Below, in pieces: positions 501 to 48,699 of a DNA stretch of 64,000 nucleotides. Numbering within the stretch: the stretch's first letter is position 1; every line of letters starts with the position of its first letter. Below the pieces are notes generated by a model. That model searched no databases, had not been told where the DNA came from, and saw only the letters and a program-made list of their open reading frames with translations. The stretch is from Chrysomallon squamiferum. Taxonomy: Eukaryota; Animalia; Mollusca. A program made the translations under genes and the position numbers. The DNA is taken from positions 5,766,001 to 5,830,000 of the forward strand of contig CM022670.1 of NCBI GenBank assembly GCA_012295275.1, given 5' to 3'.

Positions 501-511
501 CATTAGCAATA

Positions 512-3307: not shown

Positions 3308-3352
<45 letters not shown>

Positions 3353-3777
3353 TTCTGAAGTTAGGAACTCAAACATCTGTATAAACCATGCTTACAGTGA
3401 TTTAACAGGATTAACAGGCAACAGAACCAAACAAACATCATTGTACAATAAATATACCTCTGTCGTGTCAGTCTTATTTACTTCATATATTTTTTTTAAC
3501 TAATACTCTGTGAGTACTTTGTAATTAAACTTTGTTTACTATTTTATTCAATGTTTGTAACAACTGATTATTAAAACTCATATTTCAGGGTCTGCTACAA
3601 GAACTGCTGTTAAACTGCGATGGGCAATTGAAAAAGGAGCTCATCCAGTTTGCTGCATACTATGAACATCGACTACAGCTGGGACAGAAAGCTATTTATC
3701 ATCTTGAAGCTTTTGTGGCCAAATTTATGGCAATTTACAAACGATTTTTTGAGGAGGGACTCGCAGAACTGTTCTAA
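512..3777 (+). CDS. RFC3: Replication factor C subunit 3 (clamp loader, AAA+), about 355 aa, 8 coding exons
   Basis: Exons 512-598, 927-1132, 1309-1406, 1501-1682, 1945-2081, 2287-2385, 3204-3273, 3589-3777. All introns are GT-AG and the frame is continuous (1068 nt). Motifs: [10 protein letters not shown], Walker [34 protein letters not shown]-terminal [10 protein letters not shown]. Confidence 0.97.
3314..3348. repeat. (TA)n microsatellite in RFC3 intron 7
   Basis: Direct reading of the sequence. Confidence 0.9.
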
Positions 3778-25400: not shown

Positions 25401-26715
25401 ATAAAATGATAGAATGAGGGAGAGGTTATAACTCACATGTATTTATACATGTCAGTTATAACCTCTCCCTCAATCTATCATTTTGTTATCTATTTCACTT
25501 ACTTGTTTCTTTGTGTTTGTGTTTCTTAGTAAAATCACACACTTGTCTTCAACCTGAACATTATAATTACACTGTTGTGTGTTTGTTTTTCAGCTGACAC
25601 ATTTGGCTATCTGGGGAAGCATTGCCTGCTGGTTTGCCTTTCTTGTAGTCTACAGTCATATCTTTCCTCATCTGAAGCTTGCTCCAGAGATGGTTGGGAT
25701 GGTAACTTGAACACATCTTACTTATTTTACGTTTTTCTTGTATATAATATGTTTGATAATAGTAGAGGAATGATGACCTATTTCATCTTACAGCTGTTTA
25801 TTAATTATTTAATAATTAGAAAAAAATTATAACTGAATTTTACAACAACAAAAAACCACATTACAAACCTATGTACTTTTAATGTGCAATTTTTTTCTAA
25901 ACTGGCAATTTAGTGTGAAAGCTTTATGACTATAATTATTATGATTTGTACTTTTTGTGTAAAAATGATTTCTTCCATATTTTCAGGATATACATGTTTA
26001 TGGCTGTTCTCTGTTCTGGTTGGGTCTTATCATCGTTCCAATGATAGCCCTGTTTAGAGACTTTGTTTGGAAAGTGTATGTATCACACACAATACTAATA
26101 ATTTTATATTATAATATCTATCACAATCTGGTTGTTACATGGTTTGTTATTCAGCTGCTAATTGTTATCTCTGTCATTATTTATTATGTTTTACTCAAAC
26201 AATTGTCTAAAGTAATAGCAAAATCCTAAATACATTTTTTTACTTACAGAATTAAACGCACTTACTTCAAGACAGCACGCCACTACATACAGGAGCTAGA
26301 ACTCAACAACAAGATTCCCATTCTGGAACCAGGGTCACCGAAGTTGAAAAGGTTTGATATCAGATTATTACATCTTTTTATTATTAAAGTGGCTTAATTC
26401 CAGCCATTACTCATACATGAAAACTTATGGCATTTATTTTCCAATCCACTTAAAAAAACAAACAGTAATTGGATATCTAATTGTTAAAAAATAAAAATAT
26501 GCATTAAATATAATTTTCCAAAGAATTTTTGTTTATTTTTATTTTTTATTTTTGAATAGACAGAGATTCATAATATTTTAAGGAGAATTTAAGTTTATAT
26601 TCATGTACAATTTTTATTTTTAGTTACTGATGACATTAATTTAAGTAACATTGTTTTATCATTATAGTGCTAGCCTTTGTACACTAGCCCATCAGTATTT
26701 ATTTCTATAAATTCC

Positions 26716-26758
<43 letters not shown>

Positions 26759-29700
26759 TATAAAGATCTCTTCATTTATTTACTTGTCATGCCTGTACAT
26801 TTATTATTTTCAACATCAAGCCTGTAGATTTGTGATTTTAAATGTGTGTTCAGGTACAGACCTATCAGTGAGCGAGCCAAACTTCTCAGTTCTACTGCAC
26901 TTGGTCGACAGCCTGGACGAATAACTTCAGCCACCCCAACCCCACGTGAGTTTTTATTTTATTTACTTACATGTTGTAAATTTCTTTCGACACTTTATTT
27001 ACTTAAAGGCCATTTTTCAGTTTTACTGTGTTTTTGTTGTCTTATTTAATCAGTTGTTGTCATGTAATTAAAACATTTAGTTAACATGGTGTTTAATAAA
27101 GTTTTTGTTACAGTAAATAAACGTATTTGTGACTGAATTTTAATTTAAAAGTTTTGTAACTTTATTTTACTTTTAATATTTATGGCTGTATCTTAATTAA
27201 AGTTTTTGTGACTTTATTTTGATTAAAATTTATGTATTGATGGTGTCAGTGACTAGATTAGTGTAATTGTAAGCATGCAATTATTTCATTTATTCAGCTC
27301 CTTCACCTTCACCTTCACGTAAGTGTCACTTTTTTGACAAAAAACATTTAGTAATGGTTTCTGGTCTGCTTTTTCTAGTTTCTAACCTCTGATGCTGACT
27401 TCTGTTTACTACAGACTATCATCAACATATTCATGTCTATCTTTCAGTGACAGTAATTCTAAATTTTGTGTTTCCTTACAATAGTCTCAACACTAATGTT
27501 TATCTTTGAGTAACATATTTTATATATGACACCTAACACAGATCTTTACACTTTACTTACCTTGAATAACTTTAATCTGTTTACTTTGTAAATGTTACAT
27601 TGAATAACAGTCAATTCTTTACTTTGTAAATGATTACATTGAATAACTATAAAATCTTTACTTTGTAAATGTTACATTGAATAACTATGAACTCTTTATT
27701 TTATAAATGATTATGATGAATAACTGTAAATGTTACACTGAATAACTGTAAACTCTCTACTTTATAAATGTTACATTGAATAACTGTAAACTCTTTACTT
27801 TGTAAATGATTACACTGAATAACTGTAAACTCTTTACTTTGTAAATGTTACATTGAATAACTGTAAACTCTACTTTATAAATGTTACATTGAATAACTGT
27901 AAACTCTCTACTTTATAAATGTTACATTGAATAACTGTAAACTCTTTACTTTGTAAATGATTACACTGAATGGTAATAGCCTCTGCATTTTACACTTGTC
28001 TATTTCAAATAGCAATGACCTCTACTCTATACACATTACCTTTAACCTTTAGATACATTTATACAGTAACCACTAACCTTTAGATACTTTATACATGAAT
28101 ATTTACCAATGTATAACATTAACCTGTACTTTATGTATGTTTATCTTAGTTCTTTTGGTTTGTTCATTATGACTGGTTTGTTTACTTCTGATGCACACTT
28201 TGTGTAATAACACTAACCTTTGCCTGCATGTTTATCTTTGAGTAACATGCATTCTATTATACACACACACATATAGGCCAACATGATAGGTAGATCAGTA
28301 TCAACTCAGTATGTATCTTGTGTTATTTCACAGTTGTTAGAAACATCTTATTATTGTCTAAGATGTTTCTCTAAGTAACAGAATACACTGGTCAGCAAAC
28401 AGTGTATTGATATATTACTGTTCAGTTTTTAAACACAAACAGTACAATTAAAAGTGTAGTGTTTTGGCAGTAACAACAGATTATTTTAAGAGTTAATCTA
28501 ATAATTTTATTTTACTATTTGAAGTGTCAGTTTTGCAAAAGTAGAACAATTTTCAGTTGGCTGAAGAATTTCATAGAAAAAATTAGCATCTCATCCTTGC
28601 ATTCAGAGATTGAGGCAAATTTTTGTTTGTTTTTCTTTTTTTAACTTTTTTTTCTTCCACCTCCCCCCCTAGTAATACAAATTACTGTTGCATTTACATT
28701 TTAATGTTCATAATATTTTTTTACTGTTTGTTTTTGCAGGATTTATACTCCTATTTACATTATTATTGTTGTTGTTCTGTTCTCAGGATACACAGTGTTT
28801 CTCCTTTTTTAACATTACTGCCTGTGATCAGCTGTTTATTTTCAGTATTAAACCAGTGCAGTGTATTACAAATAAAACAGCTGACAAGAACAGCCAGATC
28901 ATCAGTATTTATTGTCAGTTCAGAGATCTGCTGTTAGATTGTCACTAATACAAGACTTAGGAATGATGCTGTCTCAAACAAACTTTAGCTTTTGGTGTTA
29001 CTTTTCTAAATACTTATTTTTTTATCAACTATACATTTTAATTTTTTTTTAATTTTTTTTTTAATTCATCAAATCATTTCACTGTTGAATTTTCATTTGA
29101 TTTGAATCTAGTGTTTACATTTTGTTTGTTTTTGTTTTATATTTCTAATTTGTAATTTCTTTTTAATGTAAAATGATATATGAAAACTAGGAATGAAATA
29201 AGTTAAAATCAAGAGACAAAATGGACTTCCACTAAGAATTTTATCTCTGTCAAACATCCTTTCATCTGTCTATTTGTTCTCAGTGGTCATTAAAGATATA
29301 TTAATCACTCAGGGTAGTGTATGCAGTGATGTCACTAGTTTGCTTCATATTCATCTTCCTAAACTCGTCTTCCTATATTGATGTTTGTAATAGTCATCTT
29401 GCAATACTCATCTTTGTGTTTTCATCTTCCTATACTCACCTCATACTCATCTTTGTAAACTCATCTACCTATACTCATCTTCCTATACTCACTTTTCTAT
29501 ACTCATCTTTATAAGCTCATCTTGATATACTTATCTCCATATACTCATTTTGTCAACTCTTTCAATTGAAATCAGAGAGACTAGAAAATTAGTAATTTCA
29601 AAAGAGTTTAATTTTTTTTATTTTTTTTTTATTTTTATAGATTAAAATAGATATTTCAATGGTTATTAAGTCTTTTTGTTGCACTTAATACAAACTACTT

Positions 29701-32700
29701 ATCCTATTTATAGGTAAATCTTCATATTGCTTATGAATTGGAGTTTAATTATTAAAAACAATAGCAACAAGAAGACAAATCCATAATAGTGAACTCTTGT
29801 AATACTGAATTATTGCAATATGAACAAAAGTTAGGTATTAGTGTGATTTAAAAAAAATTTCATGACTTTATTTTAATAGATTTGTAAAATTATAAAAACA
29901 GGCCAGAGATAGATGTAAAGTTACAAAATGATCTGTGTTAATTAAAGCAATATAATCTAAATCTAATAAAACATTTGAAATAAAGAGTCATATTGAAACC
30001 AGATGTAAGTAAATAGGCAGATCATGTACGACTGTCCCTTTAAATCAGGGATTAAATCATAATACCAGTTTCCATGTCAGTACTGATAAATGTGAGTCAG
30101 TAATAATTTTTGTTCTGAGAGACTTTGACAGAAAATGTTCTATGCATCTTTATTTAACAACTCTAACAGAAAAGAAATCATAAAGACATTTTTGAAATAC
30201 CTTTTTCAATGATAGATTGTAGAAATTACTCCAGTTCCAAAATTACCAGTGTCAGCTAGGCTTGTCTTTACAACCACACTAGTTATGGAGGTGGAAATGA
30301 TATCAAAAACAAATATATGACACAAGGAATACAAATACTGCATAACTCAGTACATGAATAATGCAGCATACGTTCATTCCAGGAATATAATGACAAGCTT
30401 TAAAATACATTAATTAGTTTCATTGTTTTAGCTGATGAATACTTGCATAATGGATGTTGAACGACATACTTAAATACAGACCTCAAAACATGATTTTGAA
30501 ATAGGGTTCAGTTACTCTGCTATATTATTTAAGTGACATAATTATTTCAAATGTTTTACAGTAAGTTCATACCAGACTTTTTTTTTTTACTGTAGCATTC
30601 ATGTAATTATTTCATTTATTTAGCTGCTTCATCCTCGTCTTCATGCAAGTCTCATACACATCTAATCTCATTATTGGATTTTTATTTAAATTACATGATA
30701 AATATGTTTACTTTGATAACACTAACTATATATGTATTTCATGAAATGATTTTTATATTTTATATTTACATATCATTTAGTTATAACTTTCATATATTTA
30801 AATACTCACTGATTTATATCAAAGATTTTTTTTTTTTTCACAGATTTTGTTTTGATTCCTGTTGGCTGTTTGTTGCTTTTAATTGCTATTGACTAGCATT
30901 GCAGTTCTCATAGTGTGGTCTACAAGACCATGTCATGTATTTTGCAAGGTCATAATAATACTAATACCTTCTGTTACTTGATTTTAATAGCTGTATTTTG
31001 TACAAACAAAAGCTCTTTGTTGTCCACTTGGTTTTTTTACAGTGTAAACATTACTGATGGGAAAATGTTTGAGAACCACAGGACAAGAGTAAGAGATCAG
31101 AATTTGGAATACAGTGTCAGCCTATGTTAGAGAGTAGAAATTTGTTTAATTTAGCCAAAAATGCTATGTTACTATAATTATGTTAATCATAATTTAGTCA
31201 ACTTTAACTCAGACATTTAAAATTAAACATCTTTATAAAGGTTTATAATAATTTTGTTGCTGAACAATTTCAGAAGAGAAATTTACTTTTGGTCCTCAAC
31301 TAGGCAAGTATCATTTATGTTGAGTTCAGAGAGCCTGCAAAACTTGTTATTTGTTTCAGAATACTGTTTCAGTTTATTTTTTAATTGTTGAAAATAGATT
31401 TCAGTTTTTAGTTTTATTTAAAAATATGCCAATTTCATATTTAAAGTCACAAAGTGATCTGTTTTAAATTAAAAAAGAGTAAGATATGAACTATGAAATG
31501 TATTATAATACTTGTAAAATATTTGAAATAAAGATTCATGTTCAAATCCAATGTAAGTAAATTGACAGATCACACATATTGTGCCTTTAAATTAGGTATT
31601 AAATTTTAATACCAGTGTCCATGTTAACACTAATAAATGTGTCAGTAATAATTTTTTTATTGTAATATTTTGACAGAAAATGTTCTATGCATCTTTATTT
31701 GACAACTAACAGAAAAGAAATCATAAAGACATTTTTGAAGACAAAAAAAATAAATGTTAAAGTTATTTTCAAAGTGCCTTTCAAAGTAATAGATTGTAGA
31801 AATTACTAAAGTTACAGAGCATTTCTCAATATTAAATGGTATATATTTGTAACCTCACAAACTATTTAGATATACAAAAACATACATGACATCACAGATA
31901 TAACTATAAGTATACATAAATTACAGCTTGATTTCACTGAACTAAATCAGTTCACTTCTACATTCCTCATTTTTGTGATATTTTTAATTACTGTCACGTT
32001 GACATTCATGTAATTATTTCATTTATTTAGATTCTTCACCCTCATCTTCACGTAAGTCATCTACAGCTCATTATTACTTCCTTCCTTAATAACATGATAA
32101 ATGTGTTTAACTTTGTTAAAATACTAACCTATATTTCATAAAATAATTTATATATTTTATATGTTTACATCGTAAGTAACTGTAACTTCTGTATATTGAA
32201 ATGTGTACCACTGGATAATTCTAACCTCTACTCTTGACATGTTACCTGACATTACATACAAGTCCTTGCTACTGACTAGGCCTGCAGCTCTCAAAGTGTG
32301 GTCCACAAAACCATTTCATGTGTTCTGCAATGTCAGAATTATTTTGATAATAATACTAAGACATTCTCTACCTTTTATTACTTTCATTGATTTAGATAAA
32401 TGTAACTTTCACAAATAAAAGCTCTTTGTTGTCCCCATATTTTTTTGAAGTGTAAACATTAATAACACCAAAATGTTTGAGAACACAGGTCAGGACTAAG
32501 AGATCAGAATGTAGAATACGCTGTCAGCCTATATTAGAAAATATAAATAAATCTGTTAAATTTAGCTGAAAAGATTAATCATGTTTGTGGTAATTCAGTA
32601 AATTTTTTATCAGGCATTTTGAAATGTTATATTTTGTAATGTTTCAAAATACATTTTATTGCTGAACAATTTCAGAGCAAAAACTAGCTTCTGGTTCTCA

Positions 32701-34475
32701 ACAAGGCAAGTATTATTTCAGTTGAGTTCAGAGATATTGGAAAACATGTATTTGTTTCAAAACAGTCTCAGTTTATTCTTTATATATTCAGATTTTCAGT
32801 TTTAATTTTTATTTATTTAATTCTAATTTGTTTGGTTTTTTTTTTTCTTTTTTTGTTTTTTTTTTTTTTTAAGTATTCACATTGTTCATTGCTGTATTGG
32901 GGAATTATCATTAAAAATATTTTAAAAAGTGTAATAGTGAGTTCTTGTAATACAAACACTAAAGGTGTAATTAATTGAGTTTTCTTTTCTTTTCTTTTTC
33001 TCCTATAGTTTTTTTTTTTTTTTTTTTTTTTCTTTTCTCTTTCTGGAACTGTATTTTAATGGGTTTGTAGACTTACAAAAACAGGCCCATTTTAAATATA
33101 AAGTCACAAAGACATTTATTTTATATTTTAAAAACCCACAAAGAACAACCTACCATATAGCACTGATAAATGCCAGTCAGTCATAATTTTTGTATTGTGA
33201 AATTTTGACAGAAAATGCTTCATATGTCTTTTATTTACCAATTCTAATAGAAAAAAAATATAACTAAAGAGGTTTTTGAAATGCCTTTCTGAATGATAGA
33301 TTGTAGAAATTGCTCAAACAGCAGAGAATTTTTCAGTATTTTGTTAAGAATATCTTCACACAAGTTCTCAACAAATGGAATTGGAGTGATTTGAAAAACA
33401 AATTTATGACACAAACAAAATGAATATTTGTGTAACTGAAAACACAACATGCAACTTTCATTTCAGCTCAATCAGTTCATTTCTACATTATATATTTAAG
33501 TTTTTGTGATATGTTTAATTACTGTCACATTGACATTCATGTAATTATTTCATTTATTTAGCTATTTCACCCTCATCTTCACGTAAGTCATCTACAGCTC
33601 ATTATTACTTCTTTCCTTAAATAACATGATAAATATGTTTATCTTTGTTAAAACACTAACCTATATTTCATAAAATAATTTATATATTTTATATGTTTAC
33701 ATTGTAAGTAACTGTAACTTCTGTATATTGAAATGTGTACCACTGGATAATTCTAACCTCTACTCTTGATATGTTACCTGACATTACATACAAGTCCTTG
33801 CTACTGACTAGGCCTGCAGCTCTCAAAGTGTGGTCCACAAAGCCATTTCATGTGTTCTGCAATGTCAGAATTATTTTGATAATAATACTAAGACATTCTC
33901 TACCTTTTATTATTTTAAGTTAATAACACCAAAATGTTTGAGAACACAGGTCAGGACTAAGAGATCAGAATGTAGAATACGCTGTCAGCCTATATTAGAA
34001 AATATAAATAAATCTGTTAAATTTAGCTGAAAAGATTAATCATGTTTGTGGTAATTCAGTAAATTTTTTATCAGGCATTTTGAAATGTTATATTTTGTAA
34101 TGTTTCAAAATACATTTTATTGCTGAACAATTTCAGAGCAAAAACTAGCTTCTGGTTCTCAACAAGGCAAGTATTATTTCAGTTGAGTTCAGAGATATTG
34201 GAAAACATGTATTTATTTCAAAACAGTCTCAGTTTATTCTTTTATATATTCAGATTTTCAGTTTTAATTTTTATTTATTTAATTCTAATTTTTTTTTTTT
34301 TCATTTATGTTTGTTATGTTTTTTTTTTTTTTTTTTTTTTTAGTATTCACATTGTTCATTGCTGTATTGGGGAATTATCATTAAAAATATTTTAAAAAGT
34401 GTAATAGTGAGTTCTTGTAATACAAACACTAAAGGTGTAATTAAGTGAGTTTTCTTTTCTTTATTTTCTCCTATA

Positions 34476-34506
<31 letters not shown>

Positions 34507-37500
34507 CTCTTTCTGGAACTGTATTTTAATGGGTTTGTAGACTTACAAAAACAGGCCCATTTTAAATATAAAGAGATTTATTTTATATTTTAAAAACCCA
34601 CAAAGAACAACCTACCATATAGCACTGATAAATGCCAGTCAGTCATAATCTTTGTATTGTGAAATTTTGACAGAAAATGTTTCATATGTCTTTTATTTAC
34701 CAATTCTAATAGAAAAAAAAAATGTCAGTATTTTGTTAAGAATATCTTCACAAGTTCTCAACAAATGGAATTGGAGTGATATGAAAAACAAATTTATGAC
34801 ATAAACAAAATGAATATTTGTGTAACTGAAAACACAACATGCAACTTTCATTTCAGCTCAGTCAGTTCATTTCTACATTATATATTTAAGTTTTTGTGTT
34901 ATGTTTAATTACTGTCACTTTGACATTCATGTAATTATTTCATTTATTTAGCTATTTCACCCTCATCTTCACGTAAGTTATCTACAGCTCATTATTACTT
35001 CTTTCCTTAAATAACCTGATAAATATGTTTATCTTTGTTAAAACACTAACCTATATTTCATAAAATAATTTATATATTTTATATGTTTACATTGTAAGTA
35101 ACTGTAACTTCTGTATATTGAAATGTGTACCACTGGATAATTCTAACCTCTACTCTTGACATGTTACCTGACATTACATACAAGTCCTTGCTACTGACTA
35201 GGCCTGCAGTTCTCAAAGTGTGGTCCACAAAGCCATTTCATGCGTTCTGCAACGTCAGAATCATTTTGATAATAATACTAAGACTGTATTTACCTTTTAT
35301 TACTTTCATTGATTTAGATAAATGTAACTTTCACAAATAAAAGCTCTTTGTTGTCCCCATATTTTTTTGAAGTGTAAACATTAGTGACACCAAAAGTTTG
35401 AGAACACAGGACAAGACAGATCAGAATGCACTGTCAGCCTATATTAGAAAGTATAAATAAATCTTTATAATTTCGGCAAGAAATTCTAAATTATAGTTAG
35501 TGCTGAAAAGATTAATCATGTTTATGGTAGTTTAGTCAATTTTTACTCAGACATTTTGAAATTTTAAATTTTGTAACGTTTTAAAATACATTTTATTGCT
35601 GAACAATTTCAGAGCAAAAACTAGCTTCTGGTTCTCAACGAGGCAAGTATTATTTCACTTGAGTTCAGAGAGATATTGGAAAACATGTATTTGTTTCAAA
35701 CCAGTTTCAGTTTATTTTTTTATGTAGTTCAAAATAGTTTTCAATTTTAATTTTTATTTATTTAATTTGTTTTTGATGTTTTTTATTTTTTATTTAATTT
35801 TTTTAATACAATGTGCTTTCCCATTTATTTTAGTGTTGACATTGTTCATTGCTGTATTGGGGAATTATCTTTTTAAAAACCCATTTAAAAAATATATACA
35901 TAAAGAAAAGTGAGTTCTTGTAATACAAACACAAATTTACTAAAGGTGTAATTAAGTGAGTTTTTCTTTTACTTTCTTTCTTTATTTTATTTTGTTTTTT
36001 TTAAATTTTTTCTTCTTCTTTTGAACAGAATTTTAATGGGTTTGTAGAGATTTATTTGAAATTTTAAAAACCCACAAAAAACAACCTATCAAATGAACAT
36101 AGAAATGTATTAGAAACCTAATAAAACATTTGAAATAAAAATTAATTTTCAAATCAGATGTAAGTATGACTGACTGTCCACATTAAATTAAAGATTAAAA
36201 CAGTCACAGTTTCCACTTAGCACTGATAAATGCCAGTCATAATCTTTGGATGGTGAGATTTTGACAGAAAATGCTTCATATGTCTTTTATTTACCAATTC
36301 TTGTAGAAAAAAAATAACTAAAGAGGTTTTTGAAATGCCTTTCTGAATGATAGACTGTAGAAATTACTCAAACTGCAGACATTTTTTCAGTATTCAGCTA
36401 AGCATTTCTTTGCAAGTTCTCAACAAATGGAGATGGCAGGTGATATGAAAAACAAATTTATGACAAGATAAAGAAAATGAATATTTGTGTAACTACAAAC
36501 ACAAAATACAACTCAATTTCATTTAGCTCAGTCAGTTCATTTCTACATTATATATTTAAGTTTTTGTGATATGTTTAGTTACTGTCACTTTGACATTCAT
36601 GTAATTATTTCATTTATTTAGCTATTTCACCCTCATCTTCACTTAAGTCATCTACAGCTCATTATTACTTTTTTCCTTAAATATGTTTATCTTTGTTAAA
36701 ACACTAACCTATATTTGATACAATTATTTTTATATTTTTACATTTTAAGTAACTGTAAGATCAATATATTTAAATGTTTACCATTGGACAATACTAGCTT
36801 CTAGTGTTGACATGTTACCTGACAAACCCCTTGTAGACCACAAGATCATTTCATGTGTTTTGCAAGATCAAAACTGTTTTCATAATAATACTAATATCTT
36901 CTGTACCTTTTATTACTTTCATTGATTTTGATAGCACTAACTTGCAGAAATAAAAGCTCTTTGTTATCCCCATACTTTTTTAAAGTGTAAACATTACTGA
37001 CACAACATGTTTGAGAAGTACAGGACAAGACTAAGAGATCAGAATACAGAATATACTGTCAGCCTATATAAGAAAGTATAAATAAATTGGTAAAATTTAG
37101 CCAAGATTTCTAAATTATAGTCAGTGCTGAAAAAATTGATCACGTTTGTGGTAATTTAGTCAATTTTTACTCAGACATTTTGAAATGTTATATTTTGTAA
37201 TGTTTTAAAGTACATTATATTGCTGAACAATTTCAGAGCAAAAAGTAGGTTCTGGTTCTCAACGAGGCAAGTATTATTTCATTTGAGTTCAGAAACATTG
37301 AAAAAAAATTTATTTGTTTCAAAACAATGTTTCAATTTATTTTTATTTTTTTTACATAATTCAAAATAGTTTTCAATTTTAATTTTTATTTATTTAATTT
37401 TAATTTTATATTTTATATATATTTTTTTTTAATTATTATTATTATTATTTAATACAAACTACTTTCCCATTTATTTTAGTGTTGACATTGTTCATTGATG

Positions 37501-39114
37501 TTTTGGGGAATTAATTTAAAAGAATAAAAATAAAAAAGTGTAATAGTGAGTTCTTGTAATACAAACACAAATTCACTAAAGGTGTAATTAAGTGAGTTTT
37601 TCTTTTTTTTCTTTCTTTTTTTTTTTTTTTTTTCTTTTTCTTTTTTTTCGTCTTCTGAACTGTATAAAAATTAATTTTTCAAATCAGATGTAAGTAAATT
37701 GACAGATTATGTATGACTGACTGTCCACATTAAATCAAAGATTAAAACAGTCACAGTTTCCACTTAGCACTGATAAATGCTAGTCATAATCTTTGTATTG
37801 TGAGATTTTGACAGAAAATGCTTCATACATTTTTATTTACCAATTCTAAAAGACAAAATTTAATTCTAAAGATGTTTTTATGAAATGTCTTTCTGAATGA
37901 TAGATGGTAGAAATTACTCAAACTGCAGAGAACTTTTCAGTATTCAGCTAAGCATAACTTTGCAAGTTCTCAACAAATGGAGATGGCAGGTGATATGAAA
38001 AACAAATTTATGACATAAAATAAAGAAAATGAATATTTGTGTAACAGAAAACACAAGAAAAACAACTTGATTTCATTTAACTAAATCAGTTCATTTCTAC
38101 ATTATATATTTAATTTTTTGGTGATATGTTTTATTACTGTCACACTGACATTCATGTAATTATTTCATTTATTTAGCTACATCACCCTCACCTTCACGTA
38201 AGTCATCTACAGATCATTAATATTTTTTTCTTAAATATATGATAAACGTTTATCTTTGTTAAAACACTAACCTATACTTCATACAATAATTTTTATATTT
38301 TATATGTTTACATTTTACCTGACAATACATATACACTTCATACATGTTTAATATGTTACACAAAATCTTTAAAATATCATGTTAACTGTTGAACAGCTCT
38401 AACTTCTAATTAAATATTTATCACGGATTTCATTATACAAGAGATAAACAAATGATATCTAACAACTGTTGATAGAAAACGTTATTTAGATTTCATTAAA
38501 TCTGCAGTCCTCATAGTGTGGTCCACAAATCCCTTGTAAACCATAAGATCATTTCATGTGTTTTGCAAGGTCAAAACTGTTTTCATAATAATACTAATAT
38601 CTTCAGTACCTTTTATTACTTTCATTGATTTTGATAGCTCTAAATTGTAGAAATAAAAGCTCTTTGTTGTCCCCATATTTTTTTTAAAGTGTAAACATTA
38701 CTGACACAACATGGTTGAGAAGCACAGGACAGGACTAAGAGATCAGAATGCAGAATACACTGTCAGCCTATATAAGAAAGTACAAATAAATCTGTTAAAT
38801 TTAGCCAAAAATTCAAAATTATATTTAGTGCTGAAAAGATTAATCATATTTGGTAATTTAGTCAATTTTTAATCAGTCTTTTGAAATGTTATATTTTGCA
38901 ACATTTTAAAATAAATTTATTGCTGAACAATTTCAGAGAAAAGAATAACTTCTGGTTCTCGAGGCAAGTATTATTTCTGTTGAGTTCAGAGACATTGGAA
39001 ACAAATTTATTTGTTTCAAAATGCTGTTTCAGTTTATTTTTTTATATAGTTTAAAATAATTTAAATTTTTAATTTTTATTTATAAAATTTTTATTTTTTG
39101 TTATTTACTTTATT

Positions 39115-39145
<31 letters not shown>

Positions 39146-41151
39146 GTTTTATTATTATTTTATTTAATACAAACTACTTTCCATCTATTTTGGTGTTGCC
39201 ATTGGTCACTGCTGTATTGGGGAATTAATTGTTTTTAAAATAAAATATTGTAATTGTAAACACAAATTTACTAAAGGTGTAATTAAGTTGGACTTTTTGG
39301 TAGGGGGGTTCTTTTGTGTGTTTTTTTGTTTGTTTGTTTTTGGGGGGTTTTTTTGGGGTTTGTTTAGCACTGATAAATGCCAGTCAGTCATAATCTTTGT
39401 ATTATGAGATTTTGACAGACAGTGCTTCATAAGTCTGTATTTACCAATTGTAATAGAAAAAATTATAATTGTAAAGATGTTATAGAAATGCCTTTCTGAA
39501 TGATAGATTGTAGAAATTACTCAAACAGCAGAGAATGTTTCAGTATTCTGTTAAGCATGTCTTTGCAAGTTCTCAACAAATGTACCTGGAATACTATGAA
39601 AAATAAATTTATGACATAAAGAAAATGAATATTTGTGTAACTGAAAACACAAAATACAACTTAATTTCATTCATCTCAAATGGTTCAGTTCTATAGTCCA
39701 TATTTGTTTTTGTTATAATGTTTAATTACTGTCACTTTCACATTCATGTAATTATTTCATTTATTTAGCAACTTCACCCTCATCTTCAAGTAAGTCACCT
39801 ACAGCTCTAATCTCATTATTACTTTTTTCCGTATTTACCACATAAATCCATTTAACTTTGATAAAAACTAACCTATACTTTATTCCGTAATTTTTTTATT
39901 TTATGTTTACATTTTAAGTAACTGTAACTTCTGTGTATTTAAATGTTTACCATTTGACAATACTAACCTCTTCTCTTAACATGTTACCTGACAATACATC
40001 TACACTTTATACACGTTTAGTATGTTACACAAAATCTTTAATATATGTTAACTGTTGAACAGTACTAACTTTTAATTATTTATCTCTGACTTCATTATAC
40101 AAGAGATGTACAAATGAACAACTGTTGATAGGAAACTATTTAGATTTCATTGAATATTCATTTTATCATTTTTACTTAAGTATCAAAGAATCTGTTTTTT
40201 CTTGTTGATTCCTGTTATTAGTTTGTTGTATTTTTATTACATGTCCTTGCTACTGACTAGGCCTGCAGTTCTTATAGTGTGGTCCACAAAACCATTCATG
40301 CAAAGTCAAGAGTTATTTAATAATAATACTAAGATCTTAACCTTTCATTACTTTCACTGATTTTAATAGCTGTAATTTGTACAAACAAAAGTTCTTTGTT
40401 GTCCCCATATGTTTTAAAGTATAAACATTAGTGACACCAAAATGTTTGAAAACCACAAGACAAGACTAAGAGATCAGAATGCAGAATACACTGTCAGCCT
40501 ATATAAGAAAGTATAAATAAGTCTGTTAAATGTAGCCAAAAAGTCTAATATATAGTCGGAGCTGAAAAGAGTAATCATGTTTTGTAATTTAGTCAATTTT
40601 AATCAGACATTTTGAAATGTTACATTTTGTAACATTTTAAAATACATTTTACTGCTGAACAATTTCAGAGCAAAAAGGATCTTCTGGTTCTCAACGAGGC
40701 AAGTATTATTTCAGTTCAGAGATACTGGAAAAAAATGTATTTGTTTCAAAACACTTTTTCAATTTATTTTTTTTATATAGTTTAAAATAGTTTTCATTTA
40801 TATTCTTTAATTATTATTTTTTTATTTTTTTATTTTTTGTTATTTACTTTATTTTATTTATTTATTTACTTATTTTTAATTATCATTAAAAGTGTAAACC
40901 AGTCTGTTAAATTTAGCCCAAAAGAGTTAATGATATCAGTTGTAATTTAACCAACTTTGAATTTATTCAGACATTTTGATGATGTTTTAAAATATTTGGT
41001 TTTTTTATTGCTGAAAAATTTCAGAGCAAAAATTAGCTTCTGGTTCTCAACAAGGCAAGTATTATTTCTGTTGAGTTCAGAGAGCCTGCAAAACTTGTTA
41101 TTTTTTCAAAGCACTTTCATGATAGTTTTTTATAGTTGAAAATAAGTTTCA

Positions 41152-41203
<52 letters not shown>

Positions 41204-44200
41204 GTTAATGTTTAATACAAACAGTTATTTTAATGTTCATGTTATTATTGAGGACTGATTTGTAAAAAAATACTAAAAAGTCATAATTATGAAAATTAGT
41301 AATGAGTTCTTCTAGTACAAAAAAAAATGTATGAATTATATTTTATTATTATTATTTTTTATTATTTTTTTTTTTTTCTTTATCATTTTAACTGTATTTG
41401 AACTGATTTATAGAATTATAAAAGAAGGACAGTTTTAGATATTAAGTCACAAAGTAATTTATTTTAAAATTAAAACCACCGTCAAATGATTGATGAAATA
41501 TATTATAATTGTAATAAAACATTTGAAATAAAGATCCATGTTCAAATGAGATGTAAGTAAATTGTTAGGTTATGTGCAAGTGTCCACTTTAAACCAGTGA
41601 ATCACAATACCTGTTGTATTTACTCACATTTGTTCATTATAAACCAATATTCAACTCTGTATATCACTGACATAAGGAATATGGATTTTGTAAAACTCAG
41701 TAGTTGAAGAATAAAACTTAATCATTCAGTTAAATCAGTTCATTTCTATATTCTATATTTAAGGCTTTTTTCACATTGACATTCATGTAATTATTTCATT
41801 TATTTAGCTACTTCACCCTCATCTTCACCTCAGTCATCTACATCTCTAACCTCATTATTACTTTTTTCCCTTAAATAATATTTTAAATATGCTTATCTTT
41901 GATAAATGCTAAACTATATTTCATACAATAATTTTTATATTTTATTTGTTTACATTTTAAGTAAGTGTAACATCCATATATTGAAATGTTTACCATTGGA
42001 TAGTACTAACCTCTACTCTTGACATGTTACCTGACAAACTCTTGTAGACCCCAAGTCTATTTCAGGTATTCTGTGAGGTCATAACTATTTTGATAATAAT
42101 ACTAAGATAGCTTTATTTGACTTTATTACTCTCATTTGAAACATTATATTATTTATTATTCAGTCAGCTTTTAATTAGACAACATGAAGTATTACATTTT
42201 CTAATGTTTTGAAATATTTTTGTTGCTGAACAGTTTCAGAGCAGAAAATAGCTTCTGGTTCTCAACGAGGCAAGTATTATTTCTGTTGAGTTCACAGAGG
42301 CTGGACAATTTGTTATTTGTTTAAAAATACTGCTCCGTTTTAGGTTTTTGGAGGTTTTTAATTTATTTATTTTTTGTAGATTTTGGAGGGGGCATTGATG
42401 ATTTGAAAAAGTTTGTTTCATTACCATCTAAGCCTTATATGTTTATCTTTGATGAGATTAATCTTTAAAATTTAATAATTTTTATTTTTAATATCAAAAA
42501 CATTTTTAAAACAAATTTGTTGCTGATTCAATTTACTAGTTTGTTGTTTTTTATTGTAAGTCATTGCTACTGAGTTTGCCTTCAGTTCTTGGAGTATGGT
42601 GCACAAGCCCCTTATTGACCCCAAAACTATACCACAGATTCTGAGGTCAAAACAGTTGTCTTAATAAGACTTAAGACTTTATTAACCTTTTTTACTATCA
42701 TTTCAAACAGTAAATTATAGTTGGTGCTGAAAGGGTTAATTATTTTAGTCTTAATTTAGTCATCTTTTTCTCTCAACATGTTGAAGTTTTACATCTTTAT
42801 AAAGGTTTAAAGTATTTTTGTTGCTGAACAATTTCAGAGCAAAGATCAACTTCTGGTTCTCAACAAGGCAAGTATTGTATCAGCTGAATTCAGAGAGGCT
42901 GTAAAACCTATTTGTTTCAATTCATTTTGAAACACAATACTGTTTCAGTTTATGTTGTTTCAAAATGCTGTTACAGTTTGCCTTATTTCATAATGCCATT
43001 AAAAAATGTGTTCTGAGTTGTAAAATTATAATTAATAGAAAACTTAAATACACTTTTTATAATAATGCTTGAAGTTGTTTGGATTTTGTGATTTTATTTT
43101 ATTACATAGGTGGAAATTATTAAAATAGAACCATATCAATTCTAAAGTCACAAATTGATAAATACTTTTATTTTCCATTAATGGATATAGAAATGATGTA
43201 AGAAAGCTGGTGTAATACAAAAAGATATACATCTACACAGGTGTGATGACACTTTAACCATGTTGAACAGTATTAAAAAGTGTCTTTGTTCAGAAATAGT
43301 GATCTGACACTTATATTTCATTCAGTAACCTATAATTATTTCAAATGTCTTTCAGTACGTTCCACATCATATGAGTCTCTTTTTTTCTTCTGTTAAATCT
43401 AAAATCAGTTCATTTCTATATTCCGTATTTGTTTTTGTTATAATGATTAATTACTGTCACTTTGACATTCATATAATTATTTCATTTATTTAGCTGTTGC
43501 ACCAACATCATCACATAAGTCACCTACAGCTCTAACCTCATTATTACTTTTTTCTTTAAATAAAACAAAATATTTAAGTTGAGAAATATTAACTTAAATG
43601 TACATAAACTTTATCCAGTAATTTGCCAGGTACATTTTAAGTTGTTATAATCTGCATCACTTTATATTTTCATCTAGGACACAATCTAATATCTACACAC
43701 ACTATACACTATTTATCTTTGAACAGTACTACATTACTAACTTTTACTCTATATATATGTAGTGCCAAAAATCTTCTACTAACCTTAACAATTCCTTTTA
43801 CTAATAATATACAATTTTGGTAATTTCAAAAAATTCATAGTTTACCTTTGAACATTTCCTAGACCATTTCACGCTGGCTTGACATTGGTCAGGGAAAAGC
43901 CAGGCAGTTTTGGAAAATACTAACAGATGTCAGAGGAAATTGTATTTTCTTTATGGATGCATGATATTGTATATGTTTGTGAAATACTGTAGATAATGAA
44001 TAAAATTATAGGTTTAAAAACAACAATTTATATTTATTTCTAATCAAAGTATGGCACTGAAATGGCAGATTGATTGCAATTATTTAATTATATATCAGTG
44101 TTCCAAAATGTGAGTAATTGTTTATTTGTATATGCAGCAGTCAAGATTTGAAGTAATTCAGTTACCATGATTGGCTAAAACATTATGAATACATGGTTTA

Positions 44201-47200
44201 AGGAGGGAGAATATTAGTGATGATGGAGTTTGGTTCATAACTTATAATGATAATAGACAATTAATATTTAGTTTTTCTTTCTCATCAAAAAACTGCCAAG
44301 CAAAGTTGTATGTCCATTACTAATTATAGTCTGTAAACAGTGAACAGTTTGTGAAACAGTGCATGACCATTTACAATTTCCCATAACATAAACAACACAT
44401 TTCCCCAAATCAGTTTATTCCCCATTTTAGTCTTAGCATGTTTACTTTTGATCAGCATTAACTTCCATATACCTAACATATTTACCTTTGAGTAATGCTA
44501 ATCTCCACACTTAATGTTTACCTTTGAGTAATACTAATCTCCACACTTAATGTTTACCTTTGAGTAATGCTAATCTCCACACTTAATGTTTACCTTTGAG
44601 TAATGCTAATCTCCACACTTAATGTTTACTTTTGAGTAATGCTAATCTCCACACTTAATGTTTACCTTTGAGTAATACTAATCTCCACACTTAATGTTTA
44701 CCTTTGAGTAATACTAATCTCCAAACTTAATGTTTACTTTTGAGTAATACTAATCTCCACACTTAATGTTTACCTTTGAGTAATACTAATCTCCACACTT
44801 AATGTTTACCTTTGAGTAATACTAATCTCCACACTTAATGTTTACTTTTGAGTAATGCTAATCTCCACACTTAATGTTTACCTTTGAGTAATGCTAATCT
44901 CCACACTTAATGTTTACCTTTGAGTAATGCTAATCTCCACACTTAATGTTTACTTTTTGAGTAATGCTAATCTCCACACTTAATGTTTACCTTTGAGTAA
45001 TACTAATCTCCACACTTAATGTTTACCTTTGAGTAATGCTAATCTCCACACTTAATGTTTACCTTTGAGTAATGCTAATCTCCACACTTAATGTTTACCT
45101 TTGAGTAATGCTAATCTCCACACTTAATGTTTACTTTTGAGTAATGCTAATCTCCACACTTAATGTTTACCTTTGAGTAATACTAATCTCCACACTTAAT
45201 GTTTACCTTTGAGTAATACTAATCTCCACACTTAATGTTTGCCTTTGAGTAATACTAATCTGAACATACTGTACTTTTTTATCTTTTAGTAACAGTAATT
45301 TCTATATTTTATATGTTTGCTTTGTTTAACTTTACACAGTACATACAATTAGCCATACTCTTTTTAGTGAATATTCACAAACAGAAAGTCATTTACATCA
45401 CCTTAAAACTCTTTATTGCCTCTAATTACATCTGAATTCATCGAAAAATATCAGTGTAGTGAAATGTTTTTAAACACAGTTAAGCTGTTTTACTCAATAT
45501 TTTGAAGTATAGAGGACTTCTGTTGTAATTTTTATTGGTAAACAATTTCAGAGGGTAAAAAAGGTTCTAGTTCTAAAAAGCATGGCAAGTATCACTTCAG
45601 TTCAATTCAGAACAGGGTGGAAATCTTTTTGTTTGAAGTTTGCTTAACAAATAATTAATTTCAATTATTTAAACATGTTTGCTTTTTCTTTTTCTTTTTT
45701 TTTCTTTTCTTTTATTTCTTTTTTTTCTGTTTTGTTTTTTGCTTCTTTTTTTCACTTTTTTTTGTTGTTTTTGTTTTGGAAGATGTTCTGTGAGTATTGT
45801 TTCTTGTTTTGTTTTTTTCACAATTTTGTTCCATTTACTTTTTATTGTTTACAGGTTTTTGTTTTTGTTTCTTTCTTAGTTTGTTTTTTGGGGAGTTCTT
45901 TTTTTTTATCATTATTATTATTTTTAGGATTTGTTTTGGGTGGGTTCATTACAAAAAGCTTATTTTGACTTCTGATTGTATGCAAGTTAATATTATGAAC
46001 TTAAAAAACAACAGTTGACTTTTAAACTTTTCTTTATATTCTTTTTTTATTTTTTTTATTTTTATTTTTTTCTATACCTTTATCCTAATTTACTTTCCAG
46101 TAATTGCAAAAAGAAATTTAAATTAAAAAAAATTATCATAAACAATTTCCATACACTGTATTATCATAGAACCTCAAAATCAGCTAAATTAAACCAGGTT
46201 TTAAACAGCAATTGTGCTATAATTATTTTCTGATACTTTAAATGTTTGCTTAGCTAAACCAACTAAACACGGGTGCATAGCCTATGACATGGTCATTATA
46301 AAAATATCAGCCTGTAATTCACATTTGTCTACATCATGGTATTTATAAAGATATCAAACTGTGTATGTTGTCATTTGTTACATGATGTTCATACTAGACT
46401 GGTTTTTCATACAGTAAACATTGAATTTCTATTATTATTATATTTATTATCTGCTAGAAATATGAGGTTATTTTAAAATTAAAATCAGCTTTGTTAACTG
46501 ATGAAAAGTAAAACAATCTGATAGAAAGTCAGACAAAAAGCTAAGGAAAGAGAGAAAATAAGACATGACGAATCAATAATCAGTGAAACAACCAGGGTCA
46601 ATCAATGCATTAAAAAACAAACATGAGTATTGAAGAAGTATTGAAAAAAAAAGTGCTTGTAAAAACTTGTATGAAAAGGAAAAATAAAAATAAAGGCCAA
46701 TTATGTTTTTTAGTTTAAAAGTGTCAAACATATTGTAAATTTCAGTAGACATCTTTGTTTTACGTATTGTTTGGTAGGTGCTTGTTTGCTTTCACACAAT
46801 AAATGCTTTGGCTACTGGTGTACAAAATAATAGCAAATACTTGAAATATATGTGTGTGTGTGTGTGTGTGGTTCCTCTGAAGCAGTGTTTTCAATCTTTT
46901 TGTTTCGCTATATTAACTTCTCTCTTCTTTTTTTTTAATTCTTTTTCATCACTTTTGTGAGTTGTTTTGTTTGTTTGTGTGTATTTTTCTTTGCATTTCC
47001 CAGAGGTCTGAACTTGTTTTCACTTTTCATTTGTTTGTATTGTAATTTTAATGGGTTTGTTTGTTGTTGTTTTTTTTTTTTTTTTTTTTTTACAAACATA
47101 GACCCAAATACAAACACACTTTCTTATTAATATAATGTGAAGCCAGGTATTTTAGATACTAAATGAATTATTTGCAGAGGGAGATGGGTTGCTATGGTGA

Positions 47201-48434
47201 CTGTATTGTTTTAATGCATGCCAAAACAGAAGGACTGAAAGAAAAATAGTTTTAAATATTACCATATGTTTGACATCTGTTTCATTTGCCTTGGTATTTT
47301 TTAAGTTCCACTTCATATCTCATTTAAAAATTTCACAAATAGTATCTTTATTAAAAATATCAGATAGTTTTTGAATAATGACACAAACAAGACTTTCAAC
47401 AGGACAGATAATAGTTTAATAACAACACAGGTAACCCTCTTTAACAGTAATGTAAAAACCTGCAACAATAACAAAAAGCATGTGTTATAATATATATTAA
47501 AATATGTACATTGTTTTGTTGAGTTTATCTATTTTCATTCACATTATTAACTTTATATGTTAATTTTTGTTTGGGGGGAGTTCAGATAGTTAAGAATAAA
47601 TATATTTAATTAGCATAAAGAAATATTTCTGAGAAATAAAAAGTAACATGTTATAATAGGGTTACATAATGTGTTATATTTTGTATTTGTTGTGATTTGT
47701 GGTTATTGAAATAGTGGTAAGTAGTTCATACAGTAATTTAAACAATAATTATTTAAAGATTTGTATACGTTTGTATATTTTCTTTTTTATGCAGATGGGT
47801 ATGCTTTCTCCCAGGAAGAACATGGAGTGGTGGGACAGGTCAGTGCTAAACACATTTGTATTATTTCTCAAACAGTTAAAAACTTGCATGTAACTTTTTT
47901 TAAGTTCTTAAATATCTCTCTCTACAATTCATATTAAGAAAATTGATTTTGTTTTAATTTATTTTTTTTTTAAATTGCTTTCATCAATAAATACATTATA
48001 ATTTACTTTTGTGAAAACGTTTTTATTATTTTGATAATGTTATGTGAAAATATTAGTTCACCATTTTGTTATATTTGTGCATTATAAGTTGATTTGTTAA
48101 ATTTGAGTATTCTTAAATGAGAAATATTGTGAAAAATAATTACAGAATCATAAAGATGTGAAATAATGTGAATAATGTTCTTTTAAACTGAGTTATGGAA
48201 TATTTTAGACATGTTTGTATAATATCTTGTTACTGAGCACTGTTTCAATAGGTCTTACAGAAGACACAGTCACTCTGTTAATATCAGAGAACATTATTTT
48301 GATACAATCTGTTACTCTGTGTTATTAACATGTAGTCATTCTAGTAATATTTATAGACTCAGTATATGTCTTTAGTACATTCAGTTTCTCACTGATGTTG
48401 ACAGACTCAACCAAGGTATTGTATTTAGTAAACT

Positions 48435-48472
<38 letters not shown>

Positions 48473-48699
48473 CATTGGTAGACTCAGTAAATGTACATAG
48501 TTGGTAAACTGTCTGTTTATGTAGCGTTGGTAGACTCAGTCTGTAAATGTAGATGGTTCACTCTGTGTGTGTGTGTGTGTGTGTGTGTAATTATATATAT
48601 ATATATATACACACACACATATATAATGATCTGTTTATTTTTCAGTCGGATGTTATCCGAGCATATGACACAAGAAAAGGAAAGCCAAAAGGCTATTAG
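4499..48699 (+). CDS. ATP8A1: P4-ATPase aminophospholipid flippase, ATP8A1/ATP8A2 (Drs2-like) ortholog, about 1152 aa without optional microexons
   Basis: Core exons: 4499-4544, 12113-12230, 12528-12627, 12935-13033, 13333-13378, 13716-13830, 14456-14525, 14868-14995, 15268-15338, 15552-15649, 15962-16070, 16261-16388, 16768-16845, 17266-17354, 17652-17718, 18121-18232, 18367-18449, 18643-18692, 18943-19012, 19306-19390, 19553-19692 (GC donor), 19939-19986, 20319-20409, 20587-20651, 20908-20997, 21278-21360, 21955-22138, 22313-22423, 22963-23037 or 23398-23472, 24272-24394, 24658-24736, 24882-24943, 25310-25366, 25594-25701, 25987-26075, 26250-26351, 26854-26945, 47795-47838, 48646-48699 (TAG). 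The frame is continuous. Motifs: IQQIP (QQ, PS-flippase type), [42 protein letters not shown]. Confidence 0.96.
7026..7355. repeat. Minisatellite, ~50-55-bp unit, about 6 copies, in ATP8A intron 1
   Basis: Recurring CAGTAAACATCAAACAGGAAATCAGATATAATTAAATTTTT. Confidence 0.85.
10270..10620. repeat. Degenerate ~20-23-bp tandem repeat
   Basis: Recurring TGTGTTAAATATATACAGTGC-like units. These explain ORF 10457-10696. Confidence 0.7.
10769..10799 (+). CDS. ATP8A1: Probable alternative first coding exon of ATP8A ([10 protein letters not shown])
   Basis: Strong Kozak context AAACCATGG, a 31-nt open stretch and a CAG|GTACCT donor in phase 1. This is the same phase as exon 4499-4544, so it joins exon 12113 in frame. 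Confidence 0.5.
21549..21880. repeat. Minisatellite, ~40-42-bp unit, about 8 copies
   Basis: Recurring TTAACTAGTCTCTGATTACAGAACACTGATCAGTGTTTTGTG. Confidence 0.85.
22963..23037 (+). CDS. ATP8A1: ATP8A mutually exclusive exon a ([25 protein letters not shown])
   Basis: TTTCAG|75 nt|GTATGT, phase 0-0, homologous to 23398-23472. Confidence 0.85.
23398..23472 (+). CDS. ATP8A1: ATP8A mutually exclusive exon b ([25 protein letters not shown])
   Basis: GGCAG|75 nt|GTATGT, phase 0-0. Many synonymous differences from exon a while [15 protein letters not shown] is preserved. Confidence 0.85.
24961..25322 (+). repeat. 36-bp tandem repeat made of a 3' splice site plus the first codons of the exon, 10 copies
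   Basis: Unit TTGTATTTTCAG|TATGTAGTTGTTACATTGTTTTAC. AGs end at 24987, 25021, 25057, 25093, 25129, 25165, 25201, 25237, 25273 and 25309. Confidence 0.95.
25403..25484. repeat. Near-perfect inverted repeat (40-bp arms, 2 mismatches)
   Basis: AAAATGATAGAATGAGGGAGAGGTTATAACTCACATGTAT-TT-ATACATGTCAGTTATAACCTCTCCCTCAATCTATCATTTT. Confidence 0.9.
27298..43514 (+). CDS. ATP8A1: Family A candidate microexons (21 nt, phase 1-1, Ser/Pro-rich), 10 copies
   Basis: All follow AATTATTTCATTTATTYAG. Copies with a GTAAGT donor: 27298-27318, 32031-32051, 33562-33582, 34952-34972, 38177-38197, 39769-39789. GCAAGT donor: 30624-30644. Broken donors: 36622-36642 (TTAAGT), 41808-41828 (CTCAGT), 43494-43514 (ATAAGT). 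The phase matches flanking exons 26854-26945 and 47795-47838. Confidence 0.7.
27555..27970. repeat. Minisatellite, ~38-bp unit, about 10 copies
   Basis: Recurring GAATAACTGTAAACTCTTTACTTTGTAAATGTTACATT. Confidence 0.9.
29345..29550. repeat. Degenerate short tandem repeat (ATACTCATCTT core)
   Basis: Direct reading. This explains ORF 29317-29514. Confidence 0.75.
29600..43800. repeat. Intronic tandem segmental duplication, about 9 modules of ~1.4-2.0 kb
   Basis: Shared blocks recur in the same order, e.g. GACATTCATGTAATTATTTCATTTATTTAG, AAAAGCTCTTTGTTGTCC, GAGATCAGAAT, TGCTGAACAATTTCAG and TTTTGACAGAAAATG. Near-identical ORFs occur at 32203, 33735 and 35125. Confidence 0.95.
31274..45584 (+). 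CDS. ATP8A1: Family B candidate microexons (27/30/33 nt, phase 1-1, GC donors), 11 copies
   Basis: TTTCAG|exon|GCAAGT at 31274-31303, 32676-32705, 34137-34166, 35613-35642, 37237-37266, 38937-38963 (27 nt), 40669-40698, 41025-41054, 42240-42269, 42838-42867 and 45552-45584 (33 nt). All are multiples of 3 and stop-free in phase 1. Consensus (Q/E)QKLASGSQ(Q/R). Confidence 0.6.
41155..41203. repeat. (TTA)n microsatellite
   Basis: Direct reading of the sequence. Confidence 0.9.
44481..45261. repeat. Homogeneous 36-bp minisatellite, about 21 copies
   Basis: Unit TTTACCTTTGAGTAAT(G/A)CTAATCTCCACACTTAATG. Period 36 (CCTTTGAG at 44485, 44521, 44557 and onward). Confidence 0.97.
48437..48620. repeat. 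(TA)n, (TG)n and (CA)n microsatellites in the last ATP8A intron
   Basis: Direct reading of the sequence. Confidence 0.9.

Follow-up and report, generated by a model that had tools for sequence, protein, structure and literature searches.

How a flippase gene came to hold a long series of similar microexons in one intron, and whether these microexons ever reach its mRNA, are the questions raised by a 64,000-nucleotide (nt) stretch of the genome of the mollusc Chrysomallon squamiferum (GenBank assembly GCA_012295275.1, contig CM022670.1, positions 5,766,001 to 5,830,000 of the forward strand; hereafter the window, with coordinates counted from its first letter). The gene, on the plus strand, encodes an ATP8A-type P4-ATPase (phospholipid flippase). 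Its model was built with P0130 of Gigantopelta aegis as guide and has 959 identities to it in an open frame of 1144 residues; the 5' exon at 4499 was assigned by eye. Of 15 proteins compared with the window gene, P0130 is the nearest, which by sequence marks the source as a gastropod. Full-length similarity together with a C-terminal GYAFS motif places the product among the ATP8A/Drs2 P4-ATPases; the top solved-structure relative of P0130 is 6k7g_A, which we take to be human ATP8A1, with Drs2, ATP8B1 and ATP11C entries ranking lower. Between a 21-nt microexon, A0 (27298-27318), and the GYAFS-coding exon (47795-47838) lies a 20.5-kb intron, with phase 1 at both flanking junctions, whereas the remaining 37 introns of the model are all shorter than 1 kb. 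This intron is filled by a tandem array of modules that carry two families of microexons, A, related to A0, and B. The eleven intact B copies, all with a GC 5' splice site (donor), are on balance probably real cassette microexons, skipped by default, that would be included infrequently or in a particular type of cell.

A preliminary description of this stretch had reported the eleven B copies, and our searches recovered all of them. The string GGCAAGT occurs at 11 plus-strand sites, from 31303 to 45584, each ending a 27-, 30- or 33-nt segment that follows TTTCAG (an additional site, at 13727, falls within a coding exon), and profiles built from the flanks only retrieve the same 11 places. The TTTCAG acceptor and the donor, G followed by GCAAGTAT, are present in 11/11 copies where they had been described, and the lengths are as given: nine copies of 30 nt, one of 27 nt at 38937 and one of 33 nt at 45552. 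All 11 are free of stops in phase 1, with translations that agree with the peptides listed earlier, and ten have TGC upstream of the acceptor, at -16; each copy therefore combines a canonical acceptor and donor with symmetric phase and no stop. A profile of the whole unit adds a downstream-flank fragment at 29560 and a twelfth copy, B0 (about 28575-28617), which had been missed and is decayed, with an out-of-frame insertion, so that the claim of intactness holds for 11 of 12 copies. Every combination of B copies is in frame, and joining all 11 to A0 yields an open repeat rich in Ser, Gly, Gln and Lys. B2, B3 and B8 encode an identical peptide, and private bases distinguish the B copies from one another. 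Along the intron the order is A0, decayed B0, A1-B1 to A7-B7, B8, A8-B9, B10, A9-B11, with the A copy preceding the B copy within a module. An assembly artefact is an unlikely source of the array, judging from the modules themselves, because they differ by 8-38% (eight modules compared pairwise).

The splice sites of the B copies are conserved beyond their neighbouring sequence. When the 11 copies are placed on a tree, 4 changes fall in the acceptor region (-15 to -1, 15 sites) and 0 in the donor region (+1 to +8, 8 sites), against 137 at 101 flanking sites. With either tree, the 13 splice-core sites show 0 parsimony changes vs 19.6-19.8 expected from base-matched flank sites, an outcome reached in 0 of 200,000 resamples. 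In a more cautious null, with windows drawn from eight whole modules, the B acceptor 15-mer was equalled by 0 of 278 background windows and the B donor 9-mer by 1.4% of 349, and conservation of the A donor was that of the background (47%). Neutral simulations with rates taken from the module flanks left a mean of 1.5, 2.4 and 3.5 of the 11 copies intact at full, 0.7 and half branch length, and all 11 were intact in 0, 0.01% and 0.07% of 20,000 runs, respectively; every copy was stop-free in 2-8% of runs. The preliminary description had also stated that the exons tolerate only frame-preserving indels, which agrees with both events seen (P about 0.02), with the limit that there are just two (among the 54 indels in the modules, 8 have a length divisible by 3). 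Its expectation that the 30-nt windows would be more conserved than their flanks is borne out for the 3' half (4 changes vs 20) and is uncertain for the whole exon body (34 changes vs 43-44 expected, P 0.06-0.08). The shared GC donor and TGC are one inherited event from a single ancestral copy; because the copies share this ancestor, these and the other splice features count once, and the retention of C at +2 in all copies has a P of 0.14 taken alone.

Compared with the U1 consensus as quoted in 10.1101/2024.09.17.613571, ten B donors match at 9 of 11 positions and that of B11 at 8, vs a mean of 7.1 for 38 other donors. GC at +1/+2 with a high U1 match elsewhere is the form of U2-type GC-AG introns; in the protein-coding genes of human and mouse these account for about 0.8% of junctions, and genes that contain them have a greater tendency to alternative splicing (PMC7242645). 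Among the 38 model introns, one constitutive intron, 19692-19939, is likewise predicted to have a GC donor (AAG/GCAAAT). The B acceptors contain 5-6 pyrimidines in 12 positions vs a mean of 8.6 at constitutive acceptors, and TGC lies near 10 of 11 of them vs 2 of 37 constitutive ones; within family A it is present at A0 alone, at -22. In being short and frame-preserving, with UGC close to a weak 3' splice site, the B copies resemble the neural microexons controlled by the eMIC-domain proteins SRRM3/4, of which 74-79% carry UGC (10.1101/2024.09.17.613571), and they share a weak donor with eMIC exons of flies, in which very weak acceptors and weak donors go together with UGC, UCUC tracts and extended AG-free zones (10.1101/2021.02.24.432780). 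They differ in that mammalian targets generally have strong donors and in having neither a long AG exclusion zone nor a UCUC-rich tract: the AG-free zone spans 4-60 nt (median 52), which is not distinctive against a median of 37 (range 11-120), and at most one TCTC or CTCT lies within -40 to +50. As far as this comparison goes, neural, SRRM3/4-type control of the B exons, as first proposed, is only a resemblance. The GT at +5/+6, four bases downstream, was considered as a competing donor and rejected; the 4 nt gained by its use would put 11/11 copies out of frame, and it has no support.

Optional microexons at this site are already known from database isoforms of other molluscs, which have one 7-residue and one 9-10-residue cassette directly before GYAFS. 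In the clusters of relatives, counting here and below among the matches listed, the 7-residue cassette is present in 7 of 8 mollusc groups tabulated, and there is a single second-insert peptide per species. Mytilus isoforms (15 of 16 proteins matched) comprise 5 with no cassette, 4 with the 7-residue, 1 with the 9-residue and 5 with both; the pectinids (16 of 18) have 4 with none, 3 with +7, 1 with +9, 4 with +7+9 and 4 with +7+3; in Haliotis (13 of 14) there are 4 with none, 7 with +7, 2 with +10 and 0 with both; and in Gigantopelta (3 of 3), 1 with none, 2 with +7 and 0 with a second insert. The +3 isoforms of Pecten maximus (P0058, P0062, P0067 and P0068) carry 3 residues after the 7-residue cassette, from which a 9-nt microexon can be deduced at the place of B. 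Next to GYAFS the second insert has a final D, which a B copy would likewise supply, and the 10-residue insert of Haliotis has, in addition to its final D, the length of B and the same first residue, Q. Thus the mollusc ATP8A cassettes (Mytilus, Mizuhopecten, Haliotis) match the present ones in intron, order (7-residue exon first), phase, preservation of frame and optional use, and in Haliotis in insert length; they differ in offering one peptide per species, against 11 intact copies and one decayed copy here. Since likeness of the peptides is weak, orthology of B with the second mollusc cassette rests on position, order, phase and length. Judged from these comparisons, an old cassette pair of molluscs seems to have been amplified in this lineage: two optional exons, of 21 nt and of 27-30 nt, would have been present in the ancestral gene, as they are in other molluscs, and unequal crossing-over would have multiplied them together. 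The preliminary description had recognised neither this origin nor the position beside the autoinhibitory motif. Four metagenome-contig loci that matched a degenerate pattern of the GYAFS exon were set aside as not closely related, given how their tails read and how weakly they match the window, and so do not bear on the array.

If the B copies are cassettes of this kind, a poor acceptor and a GC donor that is otherwise near-perfect for U1 would keep each of them off until an activator, possibly an eMIC-domain protein, is present. Copies would then be spliced in alone or several together, inclusion being independent and additive with no single choice enforced. Each would add about 10 Ser/Gly/Gln/Lys-rich residues to the linker before GYAFS and turn H-GYAFS into D-GYAFS, which may tune tail docking or phosphorylation, and selection would bear on the peptide less than on the splice sites, the frame and the lack of stops. 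GYAFS acts as an autoinhibitory motif in ATP8A2 and in related structures contacts the N-domain ATP site, and ATP8A2 becomes more active when the tail is cut (PMC11750469); a serine phosphorylated by CaMKII lies in the same tail region (PMC5341728). Inserts directly before GYAFS could plausibly alter the reach of the motif or its phosphorylation. Visual inspection of the B peptides turned up none with the complete CaMKII consensus given in PMC5341728; B6 and B10 contain R-x-x-S alone. We regard as possible, though rather doubtful, a more elaborate arrangement in which the array is a copy-number rheostat on flippase autoinhibition, with activator-expressing cells (neurons or other) co-including many GC-donor microexons in a dose-graded manner. 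Up to about 110 Ser-rich repeat residues would then precede GYAFS, more with live A copies, and the weak GC donors would be retained on purpose, the number of inserts being graded by the dose of the regulator.

Several observations weigh against the cassette reading. RNA was represented by contigs assembled from four runs (X1-X4) of one study, without tissue labels, aligned over 26800-27340. Position 26945 is joined to 27298 in all four runs, which establishes A0 as an exon. The contigs of X2, X3 and X4 then have the GYAFS exon immediately after A0, with every B copy and every later A copy left out, and no joint at a GC donor was seen from this upstream side in the contigs of the four runs. 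Because contigs drop rare variants, skipping in three runs does not show that B is absent. In X1, a 762-nt contig terminates one letter beyond A0. The first letter, A, is common to the GYAFS exon and all B copies, and the second letter differs; intron retention and eight A copies share no letter with the skip path, and one A copy shares two. The break thus falls where an A0-to-B path would leave the skip path, which is a weak hint, as a base variant or an error would look the same. The suggestion that the copies are weakly included accordingly agrees with the skipping of all B copies in 3/4 runs; its other part, inclusion, has no junction to show, and we infer use.

The peptides add to the contrary evidence. 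First and second codon positions have 28 changes vs 30-31 expected, which is the flank rate, and third positions have 6 vs 13.4 (P 0.02); that third positions are the more conserved points to constraint at the RNA level. The earlier statement that the copies are selected can thus be kept for splice sites and reading frame and not for amino-acid sequence. Likeness of the B peptides to the Haliotis insert is weak (shuffle P 0.007-0.14 over the 11 copies), a shuffle comparison with the scallop and mussel inserts found none, and a D at the junction results from any exon ending in G. No B-like peptide was present in the proteins retrieved by protein and cluster searches, all from other organisms; that annotation misses such exons, as had been suggested, is plausible on this ground, the three isoforms of the closest annotated relative having no second cassette. 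Changing GU to GC weakens the SRRM4 response in mammalian assays (10.1101/2024.09.17.613571). Family A offers a further caution. Its nine module copies have five GT donors (exon starts 32031, 33562, 34952, 38177 and 39769), one GC donor (30624) and three dead donors (36622, TT; 41808, CT; 43494, AT), and the 28 nt 5' of the acceptor are invariant in 8 of 9 copies, with one change in the ninth, dead-donor copies included. Acceptor differences in dead-donor copies were 0/28 vs 24/95 in the flanks (P 0.0009) and 1/28 vs 26/98 (P 0.005). Since A acceptors are invariant despite dead donors, conservation in this array is possible without cassette use.

The last point suits a reading in which the copies are untranslated RNA elements, that is, decoy splice sites or protein-binding sites that set A0 inclusion or the splicing of the 20-kb intron. 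The densest clusters of YCAY, the Nova site, in the gene are likewise at A copies (5-8 per 90 nt vs a mean of 1.4), and the 3' half of B is conserved at synonymous sites too, with no B junction seen. We nevertheless consider this reading unlikely, because both B splice sites are kept, with no stops (P 0.02-0.08) and only in-frame indels (P about 0.02), none of which a decoy needs, and because a cassette at this position is translated in other molluscs. It is a little less likely still that the copies are mostly relics, with one or no working copy and the rest neutral passengers of an intronic tandem repeat, alike through recent duplication or gene conversion. The decay of one B copy and three A donors, the skipping in RNA, the 8-13-nt invariant runs that also occur in the modules away from exons and the lack of peptide constraint at first and second codon positions would all be at home there. 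With modules 8-38% divergent, however, the simulations expect just 1.5-3.5 of the 11 copies to be intact; conservation peaks on the splice sites and spares the 5' half of the exon, which is not expected of conversion tracts; and within these modules decay at the pace of the background is seen for A donors and not for B donors.

At the bottom of the scale we place a mutually exclusive, choose-one array of the Dscam type that would diversify the tail sequence. Its appeal lies in tandem duplicates of equal length and phase and in the variability of the exon 5' half, which is at or above the flank level with 24 mostly amino-acid-changing substitutions vs 17 expected (P about 0.055). Mutually exclusive exons of the Dscam1 type have exclusion mechanisms, and the features looked for here speak against one: the copies are at least 356 nt apart, so there is no steric block, all B combinations are in frame, and there is a single donor type. 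A scan for docking-site duplexes, made with no formal null, gave scattered matches of -12 to -17 kcal/mol with no common partner, and a shared hairpin was rejected, only B9 folding better than shuffles (z -4.1; the other ten, -0.6 to +1.5). The main isoform contains zero B copies in 3/4 contigs, not exactly one per mRNA, and a choice among B2, B3 and B8 would give the same peptide. Independent and normally silent cassettes are favoured, given the absence of exclusion by distance, frame or donor type and the outcome of the docking-site and hairpin searches.

Tandem series of small exons are, like optional microexons at this site, already known. The P exons of avian fast troponin T (PMC7581897) are a lineage-specific series of small exons (up to seven) with repeated motifs in a variable regulatory terminus, and co-inclusion of several in one tissue, which we infer for B, is demonstrated there; the protein is different, and here the repeat unit is a two-exon module in which all B donors are GC. 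Micro-exon genes of Schistosoma (10.1101/2023.06.21.545858) have 10-20 very short, alternatively spliced exons per gene, but make whole secreted proteins, whereas here a conserved enzyme carries the array in its tail only. Dscam1-type exons (PMC9741552) likewise arose through tandem duplication of exons and have equal length and phase; they differ in that the main isoform here includes no copy, no exclusion mechanism was found, and a B copy supplies 10 linker codons, not a folded subdomain. In the literature searched we found neither a tandem array of eMIC-type microexons nor an eleven-copy, all-GC microexon amplification in a flippase tail, nor a paper on microexons of ATP8A1, although supplementary microexon tables may list a mollusc ATP8A event.

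If the copies are used, the array is a rare instance in which a regulated microexon has been amplified elevenfold, with its weak, non-canonical donor retained, in the tail that controls a flippase. ATP8A2, the human relative, underlies a neurodevelopmental disease. The array bears on eMIC-type control in molluscs and on the tuning of autoinhibition by the length of the linker before GYAFS, and, given the private bases, one deep RNA set could trace by sequence the fate of each microexon after duplication (kept, silenced or decayed). The coordinates of the gene and of the array are collected in Table 1.

Table 1. Features of the flippase gene and its array intron, in window coordinates.
Feature	Position	Strand	Basis or remark
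Host gene, ATP8A-type P4-ATPase	4499..48699	+	Modelled coding sequence, 12113 to the stop codon at 48699
Upstream constitutive exon, ends in phase 1	26854..26945	+	Covered by RNA contigs in 4/4 runs
A0, 21-nt microexon PPSPSPS, GT donor	27298..27318	+	Joint 26945-27298 in 4/4 RNA runs
B0, decayed twelfth copy	28575..28617	+	E 3e-6 (nhmmer); acceptor AG to AT, body 10 nt longer, GC donor remnant
Tandem A+B module array	29950..45660	+	Complete modules about 1.4-1.7 kb, 62-92% pairwise identity
Nine in-module 21-nt A copies	30624..43514	+	Acceptors nearly invariant, three donors dead
B1, 30 nt, GC donor	31274..31303	+	GGCAAGT search
B2, 30 nt, GC donor	32676..32705	+	GGCAAGT search
B3, 30 nt, GC donor, exon sequence identical to B2	34137..34166	+	GGCAAGT search
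B4, 30 nt, GC donor	35613..35642	+	GGCAAGT search
B5, 30 nt, GC donor	37237..37266	+	GGCAAGT search
B6, 27 nt, GC donor, QKRITSGSR	38937..38963	+	GGCAAGT search
B7, 30 nt, GC donor	40669..40698	+	GGCAAGT search
B8, 30 nt, GC donor, partial module without A copy	41025..41054	+	GGCAAGT search
B9, 30 nt, GC donor	42240..42269	+	GGCAAGT search
B10, 30 nt, GC donor, partial module without A copy	42838..42867	+	GGCAAGT search
B11, 33 nt, GC donor, most diverged, no TGC	45552..45584	+	GGCAAGT search
Downstream constitutive exon, GYAFS autoinhibitory motif	47795..47838	+	First 30 letters follow A0 in 3/4 RNA contigs

The invariance of the family A acceptors after donor death is a separate signal. Candidates for the conserved stretch at these acceptors (30596-43514) are a decoy acceptor, a protein site or an alternative last exon, and AATAAA is frequent in the modules. 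By inspection, A1 (30624-30644) has the GC donor and ends in T, so that joining it to any B copy makes a stop codon; an in-silico join of all live exons has no open frame. The array intron also contains two minisatellites, at 44481-45261 (36 nt x 21.7 at 97%) and at 27557-27971 (units of about 38 nt).

Elsewhere in the flippase gene, two candidate short 5' coding exons, at 4499-4545 and about 10768-10799, each have an ATG and a GT donor and may provide alternative N-termini. The tandem similar exons 22963-23040 and 23398-23472 encode the same flippase transmembrane segment (residues about 852-880 of P0130) and, from this arrangement, are likely a mutually exclusive pair. Repeats of about 31 nt with TTTTCAG/TATGTAG at 25000-25310, directly before the acceptor at 25310, form a series of look-alike acceptors, and a short series of the same kind lies ahead of 16768. 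Beyond this gene, a compact plus-strand gene at 511-3777 is, by eye, presumably replication factor C subunit 3; the one exon of it that was scanned had no Pfam match. On the minus strand, at about 53090-59230, two tandem sets of HMG-box exons (Pfam HMG_box) with acidic tails may represent two HMGB-like genes or alternative 3' halves.

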